A stretch of 48,147 bases of DNA from a phage, in sequence record PV636260.1; one strand, 5' to 3'. This document shows positions 1 through 48,147 of this stretch, piece by piece; position 1 is the first letter of the stretch; each line of letters starts with the position of its first letter. The notes beneath the pieces were generated by a model. It was given only the letters and a program-made list of their open reading frames with translations. It had not been told where the DNA came from and did no database searches. The position numbers were made by a program, and so were the translations under genes.

Positions 1-127
1 ACGACTGGTCTATTTATAAAAATGTAGACTCTGAGCCGCCAAGCGGTTCCGATTCTTCAGGCGGCAGGATTGATTCAAAATTCAAGGTTGGTGAAGTTGA
101 TAAGTACAGATCCTCTTTCGAATTGCA
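1..127. repeat. 127-bp terminal direct duplication (identical to 48021-48147); circular closure or assembly overlap
   Basis: Positions 1-127 match 48021-48147 base for base; an ORF reads continuously across the junction. Confidence 0.9.
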
Positions 128-3647: not shown

Positions 3648-3676
3648 TTGCAATAAAAGTAAATGCGACATACAAT
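3648..3676 (+). promoter_or_regulatory. sigma70-type promoter for the cor-like/RBP genes
   Basis: TTGCAA - 17 bp - TACAAT, about 30 nt upstream of ATG 3706. Confidence 0.6.
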
Positions 3677-3705
3677 GCAATCACACTAAAGACGAGGACA
3701 CACGA

Positions 3706-3936
3706 ATGAAAAAGTTAATCACCATTATCGCCGCCGCGTTCATCCTGACTGGTTGCGCTCAGAATCTTAAGAATGGCGACTGTGTTACTTACGCTTACGG
3801 ATCTTGCATGATGCGATTCGTTGACGGTCAGAAAGTGCCTGCTGGCGAAATCGATATGCGATTCAAGGGTCTGTCATCCGACGACGATCAGGGCAACTTT
3901 AGCGGCAAGGTGTCAATCAAAACTAAAGAGTGGTAA
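3706..3936 (+). CDS. small outer-membrane lipoprotein, Cor/Llp-like superinfection exclusion candidate
   Basis: Signal peptide with lipobox LTGC (MKKLITIIAAAFILTGC); 76 aa; sits next to receptor-binding locus downstream of J. Confidence 0.65.
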   Translation: MKKLITIIAAAFILTGCAQNLKNGDCVTYAYGSCMMRFVDGQKVPAGEIDMRFKGLSSDDDQGNFSGKVSIKTKEW

Positions 3937-3938
3937 TT

Positions 3939-4895
3939 ATGGGACAAGGAATATATATAAACCTAAACGACGGTCGCCCGGCAATGGAGATAACTTCGGG
4001 TCTTCGCGCACCGTCATGGTGCGGACCCATACAGGCTGACGGGGTTGATTCATCTGGATCGGTGTTTGATTTTGGTTTGCAAATGAGTCCAGGGTCTACT
4101 GCTTTTTGCCTTCCATCTCAGGCTATCTACATAGACGATATGGATTACATCCCGGAGGTGTATTATTTGACTAGTTTTCAGAAGGTAAATGATTCAACCG
4201 GACGAATAACGGTAGGTAATTTTAACGGGCACGGTGGAAGGAGGATGAGATTTTATGGAAACTGCTACGAAATCCTCCCCGCTCAAGCTGGAAATCAGGG
4301 GATACTTGTTAACGATTCAACGAACTTCGCAGCTATACCGAATAACGCCAGATTGATGAGCGCTGCATTTGTTGGGGGGATTCAGGTTAACGGTCAGGCT
4401 CAGTTGCCAGTACAGGGCGTTCCTTTCGGTATGTGGGATAATCCAAACGTAACACTTGAATCTGACGGCAATACAATATGGTGCAGGGATGCAAACTATA
4501 ACGGGATTGATGACGTTGGCGCTAGCGTATACGTGCAACTCGTAATATTTAATAACACTCCACCACCTCCTGGGCTAGGAATAACTATGAGTAACCCTGC
4601 TGGTCAGATCGTTTTCTCAAGCGTTAGACGCCCATTCGTTCTTGGCGGGACTATGGCGATAAATGATGGTTGGCAGTGGTGCGGTGGATTTTTCCCAATA
4701 CTGAGAACAGGTACGATATGCAGAGTTACGGGTGGATATAATAACATTCGATACAAGGGAGTTTGCATGAGCGGCGGTAACGTGAGAAGCGCACCCGGAA
4801 CAAGGGTGGGTAACTATTCTACTCAGAGCGGCGCTCAATTTCCCTTCAATATAAACATTTCAATGCCAATTCCTTTCACTCCAAACATGTATTAA
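3939..4895 (+). CDS. putative receptor-binding protein (distal tail protein)
   Basis: ATG 3939 after RBS AAAGAG; 318 aa, Gly/Asn-rich with PPPP linker; position between cor-like gene and J, converging on J. Confidence 0.5.
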   Translation: MGQGIYINLNDGRPAMEITSGLRAPSWCGPIQADGVDSSGSVFDFGLQMSPGSTAFCLPSQAIYIDDMDYIPEVYYLTSFQKVNDSTGRITVGNFNGHGGRRMRFYGNCYEILPAQAGNQGILVNDSTNFAAIPNNARLMSAAFVGGIQVNGQAQLPVQGVPFGMWDNPNVTLESDGNTIWCRDANYNGIDDVGASVYVQLVIFNNTPPPPGLGITMSNPAGQIVFSSVRRPFVLGGTMAINDGWQWCGGFFPILRTGTICRVTGGYNNIRYKGVCMSGGNVRSAPGTRVGNYSTQSGAQFPFNINISMPIPFTPNMY

Positions 4896-4920
4896 AAAAA
4901 GGGGCCAATCGGCCCCTTTC
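4896..4920. terminator. bidirectional intrinsic terminator between RBP and J
   Basis: A7-GGGGCCAATCGGCCCC-TTTCT. Confidence 0.7.
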
Positions 4921-4922
4921 TG

Positions 4923-7900
4923 TTACCAGACACCAACAACCACTCGGCCCCCGTTAGGTAGGTTAACCGTGATCCCGTTATTGTTTATCTGAACCGTATT
5001 GTTTGTCCCGTTGAATGCAAACGATCCGTTATTTGCATACAAAGCACCCCTTACGGTTGCGTTCATGAAGTAAGCTGCACCATTCTTGTTAATATGCCAC
5101 CCTTGATTTCCATCCCAATTGTTAGACTGAATCGCGTTACCAATCATGGCGTTAGTAATAAATCCATCCTTGATGATCGCGCTACTTAGAATGACCTGGC
5201 CATTCTCAACAACGAATGGGTACTGAGTCTGACCATTCATTCCTGTCATGATGGCAAATCGTGATGCCTCAAACAAAATCTGCGCCTTAGCCGCAGCTCC
5301 GGAACCAATCAGAGACATAGCCATGCCTGCACTGTATTCCTGGCCGTTATACTTCAGACCGAGCTTGACGCCGTACATTGCACCAGTCGAATCCGCATTG
5401 CTCCACGAATCAAGTTTTTGAGAAAGAGCTGCCTCATTATCCCCAAGCCTCGCGCTTAACGACAAGTCAGCTTGCGTTCTCGCCTCAGTCTCGTTTGCTA
5501 TAGCCTCTCTGATATCAGTCAAACTTGCCTGGATATCATCACCAATCTCTGCCCTGAGTTGATCGATTTCACGCGATAGCGCTCCAGTCTCAGTTGCGAT
5601 AACTTCACGCAATTCGCTGTTGCTAGCGCTAATCTGATCGCCAAAACTTGCCTTCAATTGCTCGATCGCCGTCACTCGTGCCTGCGTCTCATCAGCAATA
5701 AGTTTCAGTGATTTCGTGTACTCGGCTTTTCGTTTTCCGTTCTCCTTCTTCATGTAGATCGCGTCTTTGTCATTGGCGAGCGCGTTTTCTATTGCCGCCT
5801 CTGCGTTAGCTGCGTTCTGCGCCGCGTTGTCGGTTGCGTTGTCAACAAGCCACTTGTAACCCGGCGAGTTTTCGATATCGACAGAAATCTCTCCGATGAT
5901 ATCGTCAACGTTTGTTGATGCCATACCTCTGACAAAATCAGTCCACTGAGACACGTTACCGATCCTGTCAACCGTCCTTACCCGATACCACACAATATTC
6001 CCTCCAGGCATCGGTGAGTGATAATACTCATGCTGCGGATACGGAATCAAAGAAAGCAAACTTGCGTTATCCACTGTTCCATCCGGTGACTGTTGCAACT
6101 CTGTATAGGCCGTATCTCCAGAACCATCAGAGAACCCCCATTTTGTACGGATACCAAAAACAACATCATCCGTAGCTGTAAGGTTAATCGGTCTGCCCGG
6201 TTCACCCTGTTTACCCGTCAACGTTGCCGCGACGATATTTGACCAGCCTGAAGTCGTGCCCGAACCAGCGACTGAGCGCACGCGAACCTGATAGTTTCCA
6301 GCGTAAATCCCTTCAACATAAACCTCTTTGTTTGCTGTCTGCGGAACGTTTTGCCAGTTGCCGTCATCCTTTCTCCACTGTACGTCATAGAAAACTGCGT
6401 ACGGCACTTTATCCCAGCTAACAATCATAGTTTCTACGCTCATCCCTTGGACGATTCTCGACTCTGAGGACACTTGCACGTTTTCCGGTCTAGGGATCTG
6501 ATCTGGTTCAACGATGCTTGTCGGTCGGTCGTCGATGTTAACTCCGTAATCAATCTCATCGTACTTGTTAGGATCGTACTCAACCGCAGTAATCTTGTAG
6601 GTAAATTCCTCATCGTCATCACCCTTATCGATTTTTGTCACGACGTACTGCTGTAACGCAATGTCTGTGCGGTCGATAGCGAATACCGTGTTAGGCTTCA
6701 CAGGAAAGCCAAAGCCAATGTTAACCTCTATAGTCTTACCATCCGCACTAACACTTGAGATTGTGCGCTTCACGGGCTTGCCATCTGGCTTATTTACGAT
6801 AATAAAGTCACCCGCGCGTGCATCAACCCGGAACGGCAAGAAAATCTGACTTCCAGACACTTCGAGCAAGCGCCCTGATAGGTTCATCGTCAAGTTACTT
6901 GACCAGAAGTTATCAGCTATTGCCACAACATCTCCGATTGTCGGGATCATACCCTCAAGACCGGTAGCGAAGTTTACCGTAGTGCTGCGGAGGTTGGTTT
7001 TCAGAATCCATCTCCCGCGTCGGTTAGCCTCGCTTCGACGTGTGCAACCGATCGCTGTAATGCTGGTTACGTTATTACCGAACCGCAGAGTCGCCTCACG
7101 ATCGAATACTGGCTCAACGTCCTGTTGATACATGTTTTGCTCGTCGTCAAACATCACGTTACACGTCGTGTACATACTCTTTTCGCTTGCGAACGTATAG
7201 GAGAAGTCACCATTAACAACGTTGTCGTTAGTGAAGATGTACGCAGGCTCACGCGGTCTGTCGATGATTACCGAGATGCTTTCGCCATTCCAGAAGCTCA
7301 TACCACGGAAGATTGAGCAAATATCTCGAATCACCTTATACGCATCAGTCTGTGACTGAATTATCACGTCGCAAAGGTAGCGAGGCTCCGTGCCGCCTTT
7401 CCCGTCAGGAACCATCTGGTCGCAATATTGCGCCGCCTCATATAGCGCCCATTTATCTACAGATATTCCAAGCTCTTTCTGATCCAGTCCGTAACGCTGA
7501 TTAATCATCAAGTCATAAAGAACCCAAGCCGGATTATTAGTCCACGCCTTCTTAAAAGTGCCATCCCAATTTCCGTTATAAGTTCGTGATTCCGGATCGT
7601 AGTTTGACGGAACGTTTACAATCTTCCAGCGCTTACGAATTGAGATCGTAGGTAACTGGTTTGGGAACATCTTCGAGTCGAACTCTACGAAAAGAAGACC
7701 TGTCAGAGGATAACGGAACTTGGCATCGATAACCTCAGCATAGCTTTTTACCTGAATTGCATCGACAACGTTTGAGTTATCAGAGTCTGGAGTCTTTCTA
7801 ACAATCCTGAATATCACCTGGTTGTTGAAGTTTGGTAAGTTTATTCGACGACTTCGATCGTAACCAGACATTGTTTTGCCTTCGATTACGTCAGTGAGAA

Positions 7901-26837: not shown

Positions 26838-26887
26838 GGTGACTATATCAAATCACCCCACCGACGTTTTAGCAATTAGTGCTATTT
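26838..26887 (-). promoter_or_regulatory. repeated element (ATAGCACTAATTGCTAAAAC) plus hairpin with -10-like TATAGT
   Basis: Stop codon TAG of the kinase gene lies inside the element; hairpin GGTGA-N10-TCACC. Confidence 0.55.
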
Positions 26888-28132: not shown

Positions 28133-28181
28133 GGGCACTATATCAAATGCCCTTGAGCAAGTTTTAGCAATTCGTGCTATT
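28133..28181 (-). promoter_or_regulatory. repeated element (ATAGCACGAATTGCTAAAAC) plus hairpin with TATAGT
   Basis: Hairpin GGGCA-N10-TGCCC; element abuts the stop codon of 28180..28626. Confidence 0.55.
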
Positions 28182-34209: not shown

Positions 34210-34259
34210 ATAGCACTTTTTGCTAAACGAAAATGCGGGAGGGCTGCTATAGTTCTCCC
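34210..34259 (+). promoter_or_regulatory. repeated element (ATAGCACTTTTTGCTAAAC) plus hairpin with TATAGT
   Basis: Hairpin GGGAG-N13-CTCCC with TATAGT in the loop, then RBS GAGGTAA. Confidence 0.55.
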
Positions 34260-39740: not shown

Positions 39741-39917
39741 TTAATCTATCGCAATAAATTCCAGGTAGTGACCGTTCAGAGGCGCTTGGATTGCTGAACC
39801 TCGCCCGTCGTAAATCTCAAATAATCCCCCACAGAAATCATAACCAACACTATAGATCTGATTTACACGGAATGGAAGTGTCTTGGAGTCATTTCGGATG
39901 CACTTAACTAGCTTCAT
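39741..39917 (-). CDS. 58-aa hypothetical protein (not in ORF track)
   Basis: RBS AAAGAGG before ATG 39917; preceded by repeated element and hairpin. Confidence 0.45.
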   Translation of the reverse strand: MKLVKCIRNDSKTLPFRVNQIYSVGYDFCGGLFEIYDGRGSAIQAPLNGHYLEFIAID

Positions 39918-39950
39918 GATATAGCCTCTTTGTTTCGATGTGGTTACTAT

Positions 39951-39990
39951 GCCCGAATCCCTTCGGGCGTTTTTATCAATTAGTGCGATC
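39951..39990 (-). promoter_or_regulatory. variant repeated element (GCACTAATTGATAAAAAC) plus hairpin
   Basis: Hairpin GCCCGAA-N4-TTCGGGC followed by TAGTAA. Confidence 0.45.
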
Positions 39991-41131
39991 CTGTCATTTC
40001 TGGACGATAGATGAAGCGACCTATTTCCCCAAACTGCTTATCGTAAACAATTACAGCCGCTTGGCGATATGAGCGCCACCCTCCGCGTGCTGCGTATGCA
40101 TCTTTCGCGCCTAACTGACCGTGCACTTCATCAATACCAAGCGAGTGCTCAGTGATTGTCTGGTGATGCCAGTGACCACTATGAGTATACACATACTTGC
40201 TCTCGCCGAAGTCTGATCGGAAATCTGCGGCCATTGCTGCAAGTCGCGTGTCTGCCTTTTTCATAGTGTGCCCGTGAGTGTATCCCAACAAGGTATTTCC
40301 CCAACGAGTCTTATGCAGAATCATAGGACTAACGTCAACGAATACTCGCGGCTCGTCTTCATAATATGCCGACATTGCAGCGCGTAGCCAAATCATCCCT
40401 GCCTGGTCGTGGTTCCCTTCGATAACCTGGACTTCGACTTCCTTGTGTTTCAGTAGCATTTTGTCGATAGCGCGACGAACAGATCTAATAGCTACATGCA
40501 CCAATTTTGCATATCGTGAATCCTGATCCAGAACGTGACCACTTGCCGGGGTAACAGCATCAAGACCGTCCGAGTGAAGGAAGTCACCGCCGATTAAAAG
40601 AACGGCCTTCTCTGCGTTCGGAGCAATATCGATCGCGTAATTAAAGAAGTCGCTAAGCACTTTTTCCGCTACGTCGGTAGAGTAGTTCTCTCCACATTCA
40701 TGCTTATGAGCAAGCGCGCCAATGTGAAGATCGAATACCGGGTAGAGTGCCAGCTTGCCAATAGCGGTTGTAAGACCTTGCGATGTGAGTAGCTCAGTTG
40801 GCTTTGCTCGCGGCAAGTCTTCACAAAATGCAATGCGTGCAGCTTCCATCATAGCGGCAATCTTCTCACGGTCCTGATCGGTCTTAACCCATCGCACGAC
40901 CTCAGTCCCATCACCGCGAATCATTGTTGATGTGCCTTTTACCATGAAGCCTTCAGGAACGTTTTTAGCAACATGCTCATTGCCGTGAAAGTGGCCTTCT
41001 TTTGCCAATTTTGCGTGTCGAGCCTCAACAGTGCGAATATGCATACCGTACTTTTCCGCGATCTCGCGAAGTGTAAGTCCGTTCATACGTTCTTCGATAA
41101 GTTGCTCGGTAGTGATTTTAGCTTGTGACAT
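39980..41131 (-). CDS. calcineurin-like metallophosphoesterase with N-terminal HTH domain
   Basis: HTH-like LTLREIAEKYGMHIRTVEARHAKL; phosphoesterase motifs GGDFLH and GNHD. Confidence 0.7.
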   Translation of the reverse strand: MSQAKITTEQLIEERMNGLTLREIAEKYGMHIRTVEARHAKLAKEGHFHGNEHVAKNVPEGFMVKGTSTMIRGDGTEVVRWVKTDQDREKIAAMMEAARIAFCEDLPRAKPTELLTSQGLTTAIGKLALYPVFDLHIGALAHKHECGENYSTDVAEKVLSDFFNYAIDIAPNAEKAVLLIGGDFLHSDGLDAVTPASGHVLDQDSRYAKLVHVAIRSVRRAIDKMLLKHKEVEVQVIEGNHDQAGMIWLRAAMSAYYEDEPRVFVDVSPMILHKTRWGNTLLGYTHGHTMKKADTRLAAMAADFRSDFGESKYVYTHSGHWHHQTITEHSLGIDEVHGQLGAKDAYAARGGWRSYRQAAVIVYDKQFGEIGRFIYRPEMTGSH

Positions 41132-41209
41132 ATTTTAATCCTTACATGATAATGAAATACATTACTGAAAATGAAATTAGCGGTGTTAATACTACAGCAA
41201 AATAAAGTC

Positions 41210-41611
41210 TCATGCCACAGCCTTTAACCAGAATCCTAGATCTGAAGATTTAAACTCAACTAGTTTTCCATCAACCTCAAGCATCATACTGTTTCTACCT
41301 GGTGAGTAATAACCTATATGCAACTCTTGCTCGATCCCAATAGTGCAAAGCACGTTAACGAAGTCAGGAGGCAACCAATCAGAGAAAGGGATTTGCTTAA
41401 CCTGCTTCTTTCCGATCCATATAGTCTGGTAATCTTCTTCGTTAATGTTTAAGCCTGGAAGACTTGTTGTTCTTTGATGTTTTTCGTTCTCGCTCAATTC
41501 TCTTTCCCTCTTCACGATAAAACTCAAGTGACGGAGTTGCTGGCACTCTATGCATTTTTCTCGGCATATCCTCCATAAATGAAATCTTGCCATTTGAGAT
41601 AATGCTAACAT
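41210..41611 (-). CDS. hypothetical protein (frame B; overlaps 41442..41714 out of frame)
   Basis: ORF track; start unclear. Confidence 0.35.
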   Translation of the reverse strand: MLALSQMARFHLWRICREKCIECQQLRHLSFIVKRERELSENEKHQRTTSLPGLNINEEDYQTIWIGKKQVKQIPFSDWLPPDFVNVLCTIGIEQELHIGYYSPGRNSMMLEVDGKLVEFKSSDLGFWLKAVA

Positions 41612-41714
41612 CCTTTATATCGAAATATTTCGCTATTAGTGCTATATCGTCTGAGATTCCGCACTCCTTCGCGTGCTCCCAAACCTCTCGTTTACCTTGT
41701 TTTTTTATCAGCAT
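41442..41714 (-). CDS. hypothetical protein (frame A)
   Basis: RBS GGAGAA before ATG 41714; the C-terminal third is low-complexity basic. Confidence 0.4.
   Translation of the reverse strand: MLIKKQGKREVWEHAKECGISDDIALIAKYFDIKDVSIISNGKISFMEDMPRKMHRVPATPSLEFYREEGKRIERERKTSKNNKSSRLKH
41627..41646 (-). promoter_or_regulatory. intragenic copy of the repeated element (ATAGCACTAATAGCGAAAT)
   Basis: Sequence match inside frame A, just upstream of the frame B start. Confidence 0.35.
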
Positions 41715-42961: not shown

Positions 42962-43002
42962 GCCAGATTCCATTCCGGCATGTTTAGCAAAAAGTGCTAT
43001 TT
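42962..43002 (-). promoter_or_regulatory. repeated element (ATAGCACTTTTTGCTAAAC) plus hairpin upstream of dam
   Basis: TAG stop of the VRR-NUC gene lies within the element. Confidence 0.5.
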
Positions 43003-45488: not shown

Positions 45489-45510
45489 GTTTTTAGCAAA
45501 AAGTGCTATA
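45489..45510 (-). promoter_or_regulatory. repeated element (ATAGCACTTTTTGCTAAAAAC) upstream of the helicase
   Basis: Its -10-like TATTAT is the complement of the plus-strand TATAAT region. Confidence 0.5.
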
Positions 45511-45521
45511 GGAGAATCAAG

Positions 45522-45974
45522 ATGAGTATTCAACGTATCGCAGAGTCAACTGGTGAAATCGATAAACGTCACATCAATGGTAACAACGGAACACGGCGCG
45601 GTAAAGATAAAAAGCCTCGACAGCGTTGCGGGTTCTATATTCATAAAGAAGAAACACGCGCCGGACTGCGAGCGCGACTTGATGCTCTTATCGAATATTA
45701 CGGCGGCCCTGCGGCCTGCGCAAAGGCTCTAAAAGTTAGCAATCAGACGGTGCAAGGCTGGAAAGATCGAAATATGATTTCATGGCAAGGCGCTGAAGCT
45801 GCGCATCGCGCTTACCGCCGACAGGGGTGCAAAGGATTTCGTGCCGCATGGTTGCGATTCGACCTGAAGTTTGACGGTAACGGCAAGTGCCTTGAGAAGC
45901 GATGCAAGAACAAGAAATTTATGCGCGTCGTGAAGAAGGAAGATATCGGAACTACCAATAGCATTTTTAGTTAA
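45522..45974 (+). CDS. putative DNA-binding regulator (Cro/YdaS-like HTH)
   Basis: RBS AGGAGA; HTH-like AACAKALKVSNQTVQGWKDRNMIS; Cys/His and basic residues. Confidence 0.5.
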   Translation: MSIQRIAESTGEIDKRHINGNNGTRRGKDKKPRQRCGFYIHKEETRAGLRARLDALIEYYGGPAACAKALKVSNQTVQGWKDRNMISWQGAEAAHRAYRRQGCKGFRAAWLRFDLKFDGNGKCLEKRCKNKKFMRVVKKEDIGTTNSIFS

Positions 45975-47010: not shown

Positions 47011-47053
47011 ATAGCACAATGATAAAATCAGCGTTTAGCAATTCGTGCTATTT
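47011..47053. promoter_or_regulatory. head-to-head pair of repeated elements upstream of the tail fiber gene
   Basis: ATAGCACAATGATAAAATC (plus) and the complement of ATAGCACGAATTGCTAAAC; then RBS AAGGAG and ATG 47072. Confidence 0.5.
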
Positions 47054-47071: not shown

Positions 47072-48147
47072 ATGGCTTTATATAGACGCGGTACAGCATC
47101 AATGGATGCAGATGGAACGGTTCGCGGAACCGACACAAAATGGAAGGATCAGCTTGCTCTGATTCGAGTAGGTGCAACTATCGTATTCCTGGAGCAACCA
47201 ATTAAGCTGGCTGTAATCAGCGATATCGTGAGCGACACTGAGTTAAAGGCTATCTCTACGGATGGTCAGACTGCCGCTGACGGTAAGTATGTGATCCTGC
47301 TTAACGATTCACTGACTGTAAACGGCTTAGCTCAAAACGTTGCTGAAACGCTGCGATACTACCAGAGCAAAGAAACTGAGATTGCTGCGGCTCTTGATAT
47401 CATCAATCAGCTTGATATGGATAAACTTGAGCAAATAGTTACTGAGGTGAATAAGGCGAAATCTGATTCTCAAGCTGCGCAAAATCAGGCTGAATTAGCG
47501 CGTGACGCAGCCAACGCTGCACGAGATGAAACTAACTCAATCAAGAACCAGACTCAACAAATTGTTGACGGTGCTGTAGGTAGTATTAATGCAGCAAAGG
47601 ATCAGGCCATTACTGATATAGGATCTAAGGAATCATCTGTCATCACTCACATTGACACTGAAGAGGCGGCAGCGATTCAGGCCATTAATGACGCGAAAGG
47701 TGATTTATCTGGTTACGTTAATGACGCTCAAACGGCAGCACAAACTGCGACCTCTGCAAAAAATGACGCTCAGGTAGCGCGTGACAATGCGGTAAGCGCA
47801 AAAGATGCGGCGGCGGTAAGTGCTCAGGAAGCGAAAGACGCAGCAAATAGCGTTAATGCTGAAAACCTTTTAACTAAGGACGGTAATTTAGCTGGTCTTG
47901 TGGATAAATTAGAATCATGGAAAAACTTGAGGCCAGACGCCCCATTAGAGTTACTTAAAGATCCTGAAGGCAACATGGACGCAACTACTAAGGGTTGGGT
48001 TGAGAAAGGCCTAAAAGTAAACGACTGGTCTATTTATAAAAATGTAGACTCTGAGCCGCCAAGCGGTTCCGATTCTTCAGGCGGCAGGATTGATTCAAAA
48101 TTCAAGGTTGGTGAAGTTGATAAGTACAGATCCTCTTTCGAATTGCA
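47072..48147 (+). CDS. tail fiber protein, N-terminal part (continues through the terminal duplicate into ..899; about 615 aa in total)
   Basis: RBS AAGGAG; Ala/Gln/Asp-rich coiled-coil shaft; reading frame continuous with the ORF ending at 899. Confidence 0.8.
   Translation, partial: MALYRRGTASMDADGTVRGTDTKWKDQLALIRVGATIVFLEQPIKLAVISDIVSDTELKAISTDGQTAADGKYVILLNDSLTVNGLAQNVAETLRYYQSKETEIAAALDIINQLDMDKLEQIVTEVNKAKSDSQAAQNQAELARDAANAARDETNSIKNQTQQIVDGAVGSINAAKDQAITDIGSKESSVITHIDTEEAAAIQAINDAKGDLSGYVNDAQTAAQTATSAKNDAQVARDNAVSAKDAAAVSAQEAKDAANSVNAENLLTKDGNLAGLVDKLESWKNLRPDAPLELLKDPEGNMDATTKGWVEKGLKVNDWSIYKNVDSEPPSGSDSSGGRIDSKFKVGEVDKYRSSFEL

Follow-up and report, generated by a model that had tools for sequence, protein, structure and literature searches.

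What does the last gene of the DNA-metabolism block encode in the T1-like coliphage represented by sequence record PV636260.1, and why does it stand immediately upstream of the lysis cassette? The record, 48,147 nt long and analysed here over its whole length (hereafter, the window), is a Tunavirus genome, and the gene in question is a complete coding sequence at 39980-41131 on the minus strand (383 aa, ATG start, TAA stop at 39980-39982). We find that its product consists of an N-terminal helix-turn-helix (HTH), a beta-hairpin/helix segment and a metallophosphoesterase (MPE) domain, an arrangement that is real and lies far beyond chance; we refer to the protein as HTH-MPE. The orthologous gene in phage T1, gp16 (ST16), bears the RefSeq label 'DNA repair exonuclease'. 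The function that we propose, with about an even chance of being correct, is that of a nuclease or phosphodiesterase that is tethered to DNA, needs no Rad50 and takes part in phage DNA metabolism.

The domain boundaries were taken from an AlphaFold2 model built on a 140-sequence alignment (mean predicted local distance difference test score, or pLDDT, 93.5; predicted template modelling score 0.81). Residues 8-44 (41000-41110, on the minus strand like all features of this gene) form a three-helix HTH, with helices at 8-16, 21-27 and 32-44. A family-specific beta-hairpin (residues 62-86), which holds the family-invariant G75 and W81, and a helix (residues 88-104) occupy 40820-40948; a structural or sequence match to residues 62-104 was looked for and none was found. 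A variable linker (residues 105-122; 40766-40819), devoid of conserved columns and with the lowest pLDDT of the model (69-80), leads into a calcineurin-like MPE domain (residues 123-383; 39983-40765), which shows the four-layer alpha/beta-beta/alpha sandwich fold of the MPE superfamily and has no capping domain.

Conservation of the active site was assessed in an alignment of 140 family members with 30-90% identity to the query. Motif I, D134-L-H136 (40724-40732), provides metal ligands and is invariant, as is H286 of motif IV (40274-40276). Motif II, G181-G-D183-F-L-H186 (40574-40591), has the Mre11-like form GDxxH, with G182 and D183 invariant and H186 present in 98% of sequences, while motif III, G239-N240-H241-D242 (40406-40417), is 93-99% conserved; both were checked by hand against the DNA. 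Motifs V/VI, G319-H320-W-H322 (40166-40177), are 96-99% conserved. D134, H136, G182, D183 and H286 are thus invariant throughout the alignment, and H186, N240, H241, D242, H320 and H322 are at least 92% conserved. Immediately 3' of motif II lies an insertion (residues 187-206; 40514-40573) of the form S-D188-...-T194-P-...-L201-D202-x-D204-x-R206, in which D188, T194, L201, D202, D204 and R206 are each conserved in at least 90% of the 140 sequences. Since motifs I to VI are kept across homologues, the metal site is intact and under selection. An initial annotation of this DNA, made from the letters and their translations, had proposed a calcineurin-like phosphoesterase from the strings GGDFLH and GNHD and had named loss of metal-binding residues as the outcome that would speak against it; the motifs, the fold and a match to PHROG 704 (see below) bear this proposal out, and the ligands are retained.

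Little of this can be recovered from the single sequence. Pfam returned sub-threshold matches to Sigma70_r4_2 (residues 15-38, E 0.01) and Metallophos (residues 166-288, E 0.019; score 15.8 bits, cut-off 21.5), and a PDB search gave chance matches only. The PF00149 threshold was missed because the family has diverged too far for the generic model to recognise it, and MPE membership is based on the motifs and the fold. The N-terminal domain becomes visible when homologues are considered: N-terminal segments (n = 51, scanned singly) match the HTH Pfam families Sigma70_r4_2 (2e-10), GerE (5e-9), HTH_23 (7.5e-7) and the LysR HTH (5e-6), and a profile of such segments matches the LuxR-type HTH of RhlR in the PDB (E 1.9e-4). 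Together with the three-helix model, these matches agree with the earlier suggestion that the first 40 or so residues are an HTH of the sigma region 4 type. As judged from sequence, the domain is an HTH of the sigma-70 region 4, LuxR-GerE or resolvase type, and it is predicted to bind DNA. In seven of 191 full-length members, a Cys4 zinc-ribbon-like N-terminus (CPxCG...C..C; zinc-ribbon Pfam matches sub-threshold, E about 0.01) replaces the HTH, with the beta-hairpin and MPE core retained. The swap of one module for the other suggests that the N-terminal module serves to target nucleic acid.

Among PDB sequences, the only MPE matches of the family profile are the Mre11/SbcD protein of T. maritima (E 0.044) and the nuclease MPE of P. 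putida (E 0.8). A profile-profile comparison with T4 gp47 using hhalign gave a probability of 82% (E 1e-5), with motifs I-VI aligned, and at the level of sequence profiles HTH-MPE appears distantly related to the Mre11/SbcD branch. We infer that DNA is the substrate, that the chemistry is that of a nuclease and that the biological role lies in phage DNA metabolism. In the mechanism that we propose, HTH-MPE would be a catalytically active phosphodiesterase with a binuclear metal site (probably Mn2+), from the branch nearest to the Mre11, SbcD and DP1 nucleases; an exchangeable DNA-binding module at the N-terminus, here the HTH, would tether it to nucleic acid. Most likely it would work singly or as a homo-oligomer and need no Rad50/SbcC ATPase. 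Its plausible substrates would be the ends, hairpins and branches of phage DNA that is replicating or recombining ahead of packaging, with host DNA as a possible further target.

The family to which HTH-MPE belongs is large. PHROG 704 ('DNA repair exonuclease') matches residues 4-380 over profile positions 2-389/390 (E 7.2e-157), the protein was found by tblastn in 2,019 phage records, and an exhaustive phmmer search returned 4,628 clusters at 50% identity with E<=1e-3, 957 of them with E<=1e-30. Further loci were retrieved using a degenerate DNA pattern for GDFLHxD...TP, for which true members accounted for 120/120 hits in viral contigs and 88/120 in bacterial genome stretches, some of the latter lying on contigs as long as 4.7 Mb, with lysis genes of phages beside them; hence the family is frequent not only in virulent phages but also in proteobacterial prophages. 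In Drexlerviridae it is a persistent core gene, and an independent pangenome study found the order exonuclease-holin-endolysin-spanin in 508 of 522 genomes of this family (PMC13164509). The protein family is already catalogued in databases, and its HTH-SbcD architecture has been noticed by at least one annotation group; some annotators label the Jerseyvirus members 'HTH-type regulator/nuclease SbcD'. Literature combining phage T1 with phosphoesterase consisted of genome notes only, and a PUA-Cal-HAD paper was set aside because it concerns an unrelated host MPE. An escape-mutant compendium (10.1101/2022.08.27.505566) does not implicate the gene in SECphi4 or SECphi27.

To describe the genomic context of the family, neighbours within four genes were clustered over 214 loci, representing 52 lineages at 60% identity. 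Lysis genes (holin, endolysin or spanin) occur within this distance in at least 19 of the 52 lineages, prophages on bacterial chromosomes included, and more often upstream than downstream of the family gene. The adjoining endolysins belong to five unrelated families (phrog_7 lysozyme, phrog_465 M15 peptidase, phrog_1259/9589, phrog_181 and phrog_315), the holins to phrog_3427 and the spanins to phrog_1275. Other recurrent neighbours are NinB/Orf, NinG/Rap, Erf, deoxynucleoside monophosphate (dNMP) kinase, MazG-like and DUF3310 proteins, and in SECphi4 the family gene sits between lysin and terS. A terminase-associated nuclease was considered and rejected as a general rule, as a TerL-like open reading frame (ORF) lies up to 4 kb downstream in only eight of the 214 loci (five lineages). 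Two placements depart from that in T1. In Jerseyvirus (Salmonella phage Shelanagig, locus 4759-7144), the homologue lies on a small opposite-strand island inside the tail-gene module, together with a superinfection-immunity gene, a small ORF and an antirepressor, and annotated terminators follow it; this placement is moron-like, unlike that in T1. In the T4-like myovirus Campylobacter phage F355 (locus 3652-5951), an HTH-less phrog_704 member of 317 aa, annotated 'putative recombination endonuclease', lies directly downstream of DNA ligase.

The initial annotation had also named the protein as a candidate binder of an element that is repeated in this genome. The element, ATAGCAC-N3-TTGCTAAA, is present in 28 copies in the window (<=3 mismatches) against 1.8 expected, for example at 26868-26885 (-), 28163-28180 (-), 34210-34227 (+), 42983-43000 (-), 45492-45509 (-) and 47034-47051 (-). 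Nearly all copies are intergenic, and most point in the same direction as the genes downstream of them; the core of the element, TAGCA-N5-TGCTA, is a palindrome and so would suit a dimeric HTH protein. In most copies, a hairpin of 5-7 bp, with a stem that varies in sequence but continues to pair, follows about 10 nt later; a TATAGT-like hexamer comes next, about 22 nt past TTGCTA. The T1 record annotates some of these hairpins as terminators; no T-run follows them in the direction of transcription. The element may be an activator or operator site plus promoter. It resembles two standard promoter types without fitting either. A sigma-54 reading (TGGCAC-N5-TTGCW) was rejected on inspection, the spacing being 2 nt shorter and GG being replaced by AG; a sigma-70 reading, with TTGCTA as -35 and TATAGT as -10, seems unlikely, as its spacer of about 22 nt would be too long. 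One copy (ATCGCAC-TAA-TTGATAAA, hairpin, CATAGT; 39935-39989, minus strand) overlaps the stop codon of the HTH-MPE gene and lies before the SH3 and holin genes, where we regard it as a neighbouring feature only.

Binding of this element by HTH-MPE is weakly disfavoured, for three reasons. The recognition helix (RTVEARHAKLAKE, RSVERRGVRLARQ, RNVELRRSKLAKS) differs among Drexlerviridae (64-99% identity) that keep the same element; in family loci from other lineages (1.15 Mb), the element is restricted to Drexlerviridae-like loci, save one single match; and there is an alternative candidate binder of the palindrome, a 150-aa Cro/YdaS-like HTH protein encoded at 45522-45974 on the plus strand (P22_Cro E 5e-5, sub-threshold), which is the ortholog of the T1 ST23 'transcriptional regulator'. 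We give little credence to the idea that an HTH-MPE dimer is a sequence-directed enzyme that recognises the TAGCA-N5-TGCTA core of this putatively promoter-proximal element, or lineage-specific equivalents of it, and there cuts, nicks or remodels DNA or controls transcription. If true, such an enzyme would couple DNA processing to the lysis or late switch, and would explain the presence of a nuclease-like gene beside lysis cassettes in unrelated phage lineages.

How well, then, does a DNA-tethered nuclease account for these observations? Several points weigh against it. The capping domain that helps to position DNA in Mre11 is missing, sequence identity to any nuclease is 12-19%, and the structural neighbours include non-nuclease MPEs with high scores (MJ0936 13.8, LpxH 13.4, YfcE 12.9, Vps29 12.8), so that the margin in favour of nucleases is small. 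The HTH could serve transcription regulation instead of substrate tethering, and adjacency to lysis genes, which is the strongest context signal and an unexpected one, is not predicted by a DNA-repair role. No published experimental or functional study of any PHROG 704 family member was found in the literature searched. The same nuclease-like features would also fit an enzyme that, early in infection or midway through it, degrades the host chromosome or counters host defences, and thereby silences host and defence genes and provides nucleotides. T1-like phages are virulent, and T4 gp46/47, a remote relative, is annotated as required for host-DNA degradation. A genetically defined host-DNA-degradation function of T1 ('gene 2.5') could correspond to this gene. 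There is also a precedent in mycobacteriophage A10ZJ24, whose gp48 breaks down the genomic DNA of the host in vivo, also degrades linear, plasmid and genomic DNA in vitro, and is required to overcome the defences of M. tuberculosis (PMC12287305). Its Bxb1 homologue gp47, however, is not specifically related to HTH-MPE (hhalign probability 12%), the HTH-MPE family is common in prophages, for which wholesale destruction of host DNA is no obvious family-wide function, and the gene lies at the end of the early/middle block beside the lysis genes, not among the immediate-early takeover genes. We therefore regard a role in attacking host DNA as possible but fairly unlikely.

The lysis linkage would fit a regulator of late genes or lysis timing, in which the HTH would bind promoter-proximal DNA, possibly TAGCA-N5-TGCTA, and the MPE domain would be a sensor or accessory enzyme. 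The recurrence of lysis genes next to the family gene, with non-homologous endolysins, the conserved gene order of Drexlerviridae (PMC13164509), the position between lysin and terS in SECphi4, which is the usual place of a late activator, and the use of sigma-r4/LuxR-type HTHs by transcription activators all agree with such a role, as do the excess and orientation of the palindromic element, one copy of which directly follows the HTH-MPE gene. Strict conservation of the entire catalytic centre, however, would not be expected of a pure regulator, HTH-less members (in Campylobacter and many Vibrio phages) retain the rest of the protein, and the three arguments given above against binding of the element apply here as well. 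Moreover, lysis adjacency may mirror no more than the usual boundary between early and late modules. On balance, a regulator seems to us quite improbable. An unlikely role, too, is that of an end-healing phosphoesterase that removes 3'-phosphates, 2',3'-cyclic phosphates or other blocked DNA or RNA ends and cooperates with a phage polynucleotide kinase or ligase against damage by host nucleases: Pnkp phosphatase appears at rank 60, far below the nucleases, the match to PdeM is confined to the GNHD region and is not significant, polynucleotide kinase adjacency is seen in a minority of lineages and is not among the top neighbour families of the 52, and no RNA ligase is annotated in T1.

The initial annotation had offered, beside a nuclease, an enzyme that removes nucleotide-based defence signals, such as the cyclic nucleotides or oligonucleotides of CBASS, Pycsar, type III CRISPR or Thoeris. 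We obtained no positive support for this activity and consider it very unlikely. Of the known anti-signal enzymes, Acb1 has a 2H phosphoesterase fold and Apyc1 a metallo-beta-lactamase fold, whereas HTH-MPE has that of a calcineurin-like MPE; a fused HTH or zinc ribbon would be needless for a soluble small-molecule substrate; the profile search gave no sequence-level match to cyclic-nucleotide phosphodiesterases; and PADLOC gave no meaningful similarity to defence proteins and no anti-defence signal. A core gene found in 508 of 522 Drexlerviridae would also be atypical for an accessory anti-defence function. Finally, a protein phosphatase analogous to lambda NinI (PPP family), from a nin-like region upstream of lysis genes, would share the fold superfamily and an analogous position, directly before lysis genes and, in some lineages, beside NinB- and NinG-like genes; the PPP signatures GDxxDRG and GNHE were not found in HTH-MPE, and it would surprise us greatly if this were its function.

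The surroundings of the gene in the window are those of other Tunavirus genomes. A 1.7-kb region that includes it shares 98% identity with Escherichia phage vB_EcoS-DELF2 (Tunavirus, Drexlerviridae) and 91-95% with many further members of Tunavirus, and the ORF itself is 98% identical in nucleotides and 99.7% in amino acids to DELF2 gp50, a 'DNA repair exonuclease'. A Shine-Dalgarno sequence, AAGGA, can be read at 41139-41143 on the minus strand, 7 nt 5' of the ATG. Along the transcribed strand, the gene is preceded by helicase, VRR-NUC (Pfam E 6e-14), Dam methylase and three small ORFs, and is followed by a 58-aa protein, then holin, endolysin and spanin. The 58-aa ORF (39741-39917, minus strand) encodes a DUF7244, or stand-alone SH3-like, protein (Pfam E 1.4e-28); a recent study describes it as a shell component of the lysis modules in Drexlerviridae (PMC13164509). 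On the 5' side of the HTH-MPE gene, two minus-strand ORFs overlap, at 41210-41611 (133 aa) and 41442-41714 (90 aa), where related genomes annotate a single 95-aa product (T1 ST17, DELF2 ORF51; 41210-41714 region); the longer reading frames contain a copy of the element (41628-41645), which makes the internal start the probable true one. The first and last 127 nt of the window (1-127 and 48021-48147) are identical direct repeats, most likely produced by overlap in the assembly of a genome that is circularly permuted or terminally redundant, and not a biological repeat.

Among the enzyme families of tailed phages that lack characterisation, that of HTH-MPE is one of the commonest, and the phages that carry it include models and therapeutic phages: T1, the BASEL collection, Jersey-like Salmonella phages and Klebsiella phages. 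To our knowledge, no gene has been assigned to the host-DNA-degradation and late-control functions of T1, and deciding among a nuclease, a destroyer of host DNA and a regulator would fill a gap in the biology of this phage. The present result confirms and sharpens an existing database annotation, and nothing in it will greatly surprise a specialist.

Comparison with known systems places HTH-MPE as follows. T1 gp16 (ST16, YP_003929.1) has 377 aa compared with 383 aa here and occupies the same place, between ST17 and holin/endolysin/spanin; there is no substantive difference from it or from PHROG 704, whose existing name is an automated or homology-based label. With Mre11/SbcD, the protein shares the nuclease-type histidine of motif II (GDLFH-like there, GDFLH here), and with T4 gp47 it aligns as described above. 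Both Mre11/SbcD and gp47 differ from it in having a capping domain and Rad50-binding helices, since HTH-MPE ends with the MPE core, and in lacking its N-terminal HTH and beta-hairpin module and its 20-residue insertion, across which gp47 shows a gap in the hhalign alignment; gp47 belongs to phrog_100 and HTH-MPE to phrog 704. No Rad50/SbcC/gp46-like gene is annotated in T1 or DELF2, and the large ORFs of the window are accounted for by tail, tape-measure, helicase and terminase genes. The initial suggestion of an Mre11/SbcD-like nuclease agrees with motif II and may be echoed in the profile alignment with gp47, but does not extend to the capping domain or to an annotated ATPase partner, both defining features of that family, and we do not class HTH-MPE as a member of Mre11/SbcD.

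The 3'-5' exonuclease DP1 of PolD (PDB 5ihe; 12% identity) is an archaeal replicative polymerase subunit with OB and other domains that are missing here. The P. putida MPE, or PdeM, is a small, ligase-associated MPE endonuclease that cuts DNA without a Rad50 partner; it has no HTH and a different gene neighbourhood, its ligase adjacency is shared by one HTH-less homologue, and its matches to our family are faint, non-significant and located around GNHD (NCBIfam PdeM E 0.14, in addition to the PDB match at E 0.8). Mycobacteriophage A10ZJ24 gp48, the only stand-alone phage MPE that we found to have been studied by experiment, acts as a phosphodiesterase and as a DNase, damages the DNA of its host and serves in counter-defence (PMC12287305). 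Cluster A mycobacteriophage MPEs of this kind are about 255 aa long and have no HTH, and specific kinship was rejected for Bxb1 gp47 (hhalign probability 11.6%; phrog_221, not 704), so that A10ZJ24 gp48 serves as a functional precedent only. The class III cyclic-nucleotide phosphodiesterases CpdA and Rv0805 are not the closest structural or sequence neighbours among MPEs. Taken together, the HTH-MPE family is an MPE nuclease-like enzyme with a distinct architecture, and if it indeed combines a minimal Mre11-like core with a DNA-binding module, it would represent a new architecture among MPE nucleases.

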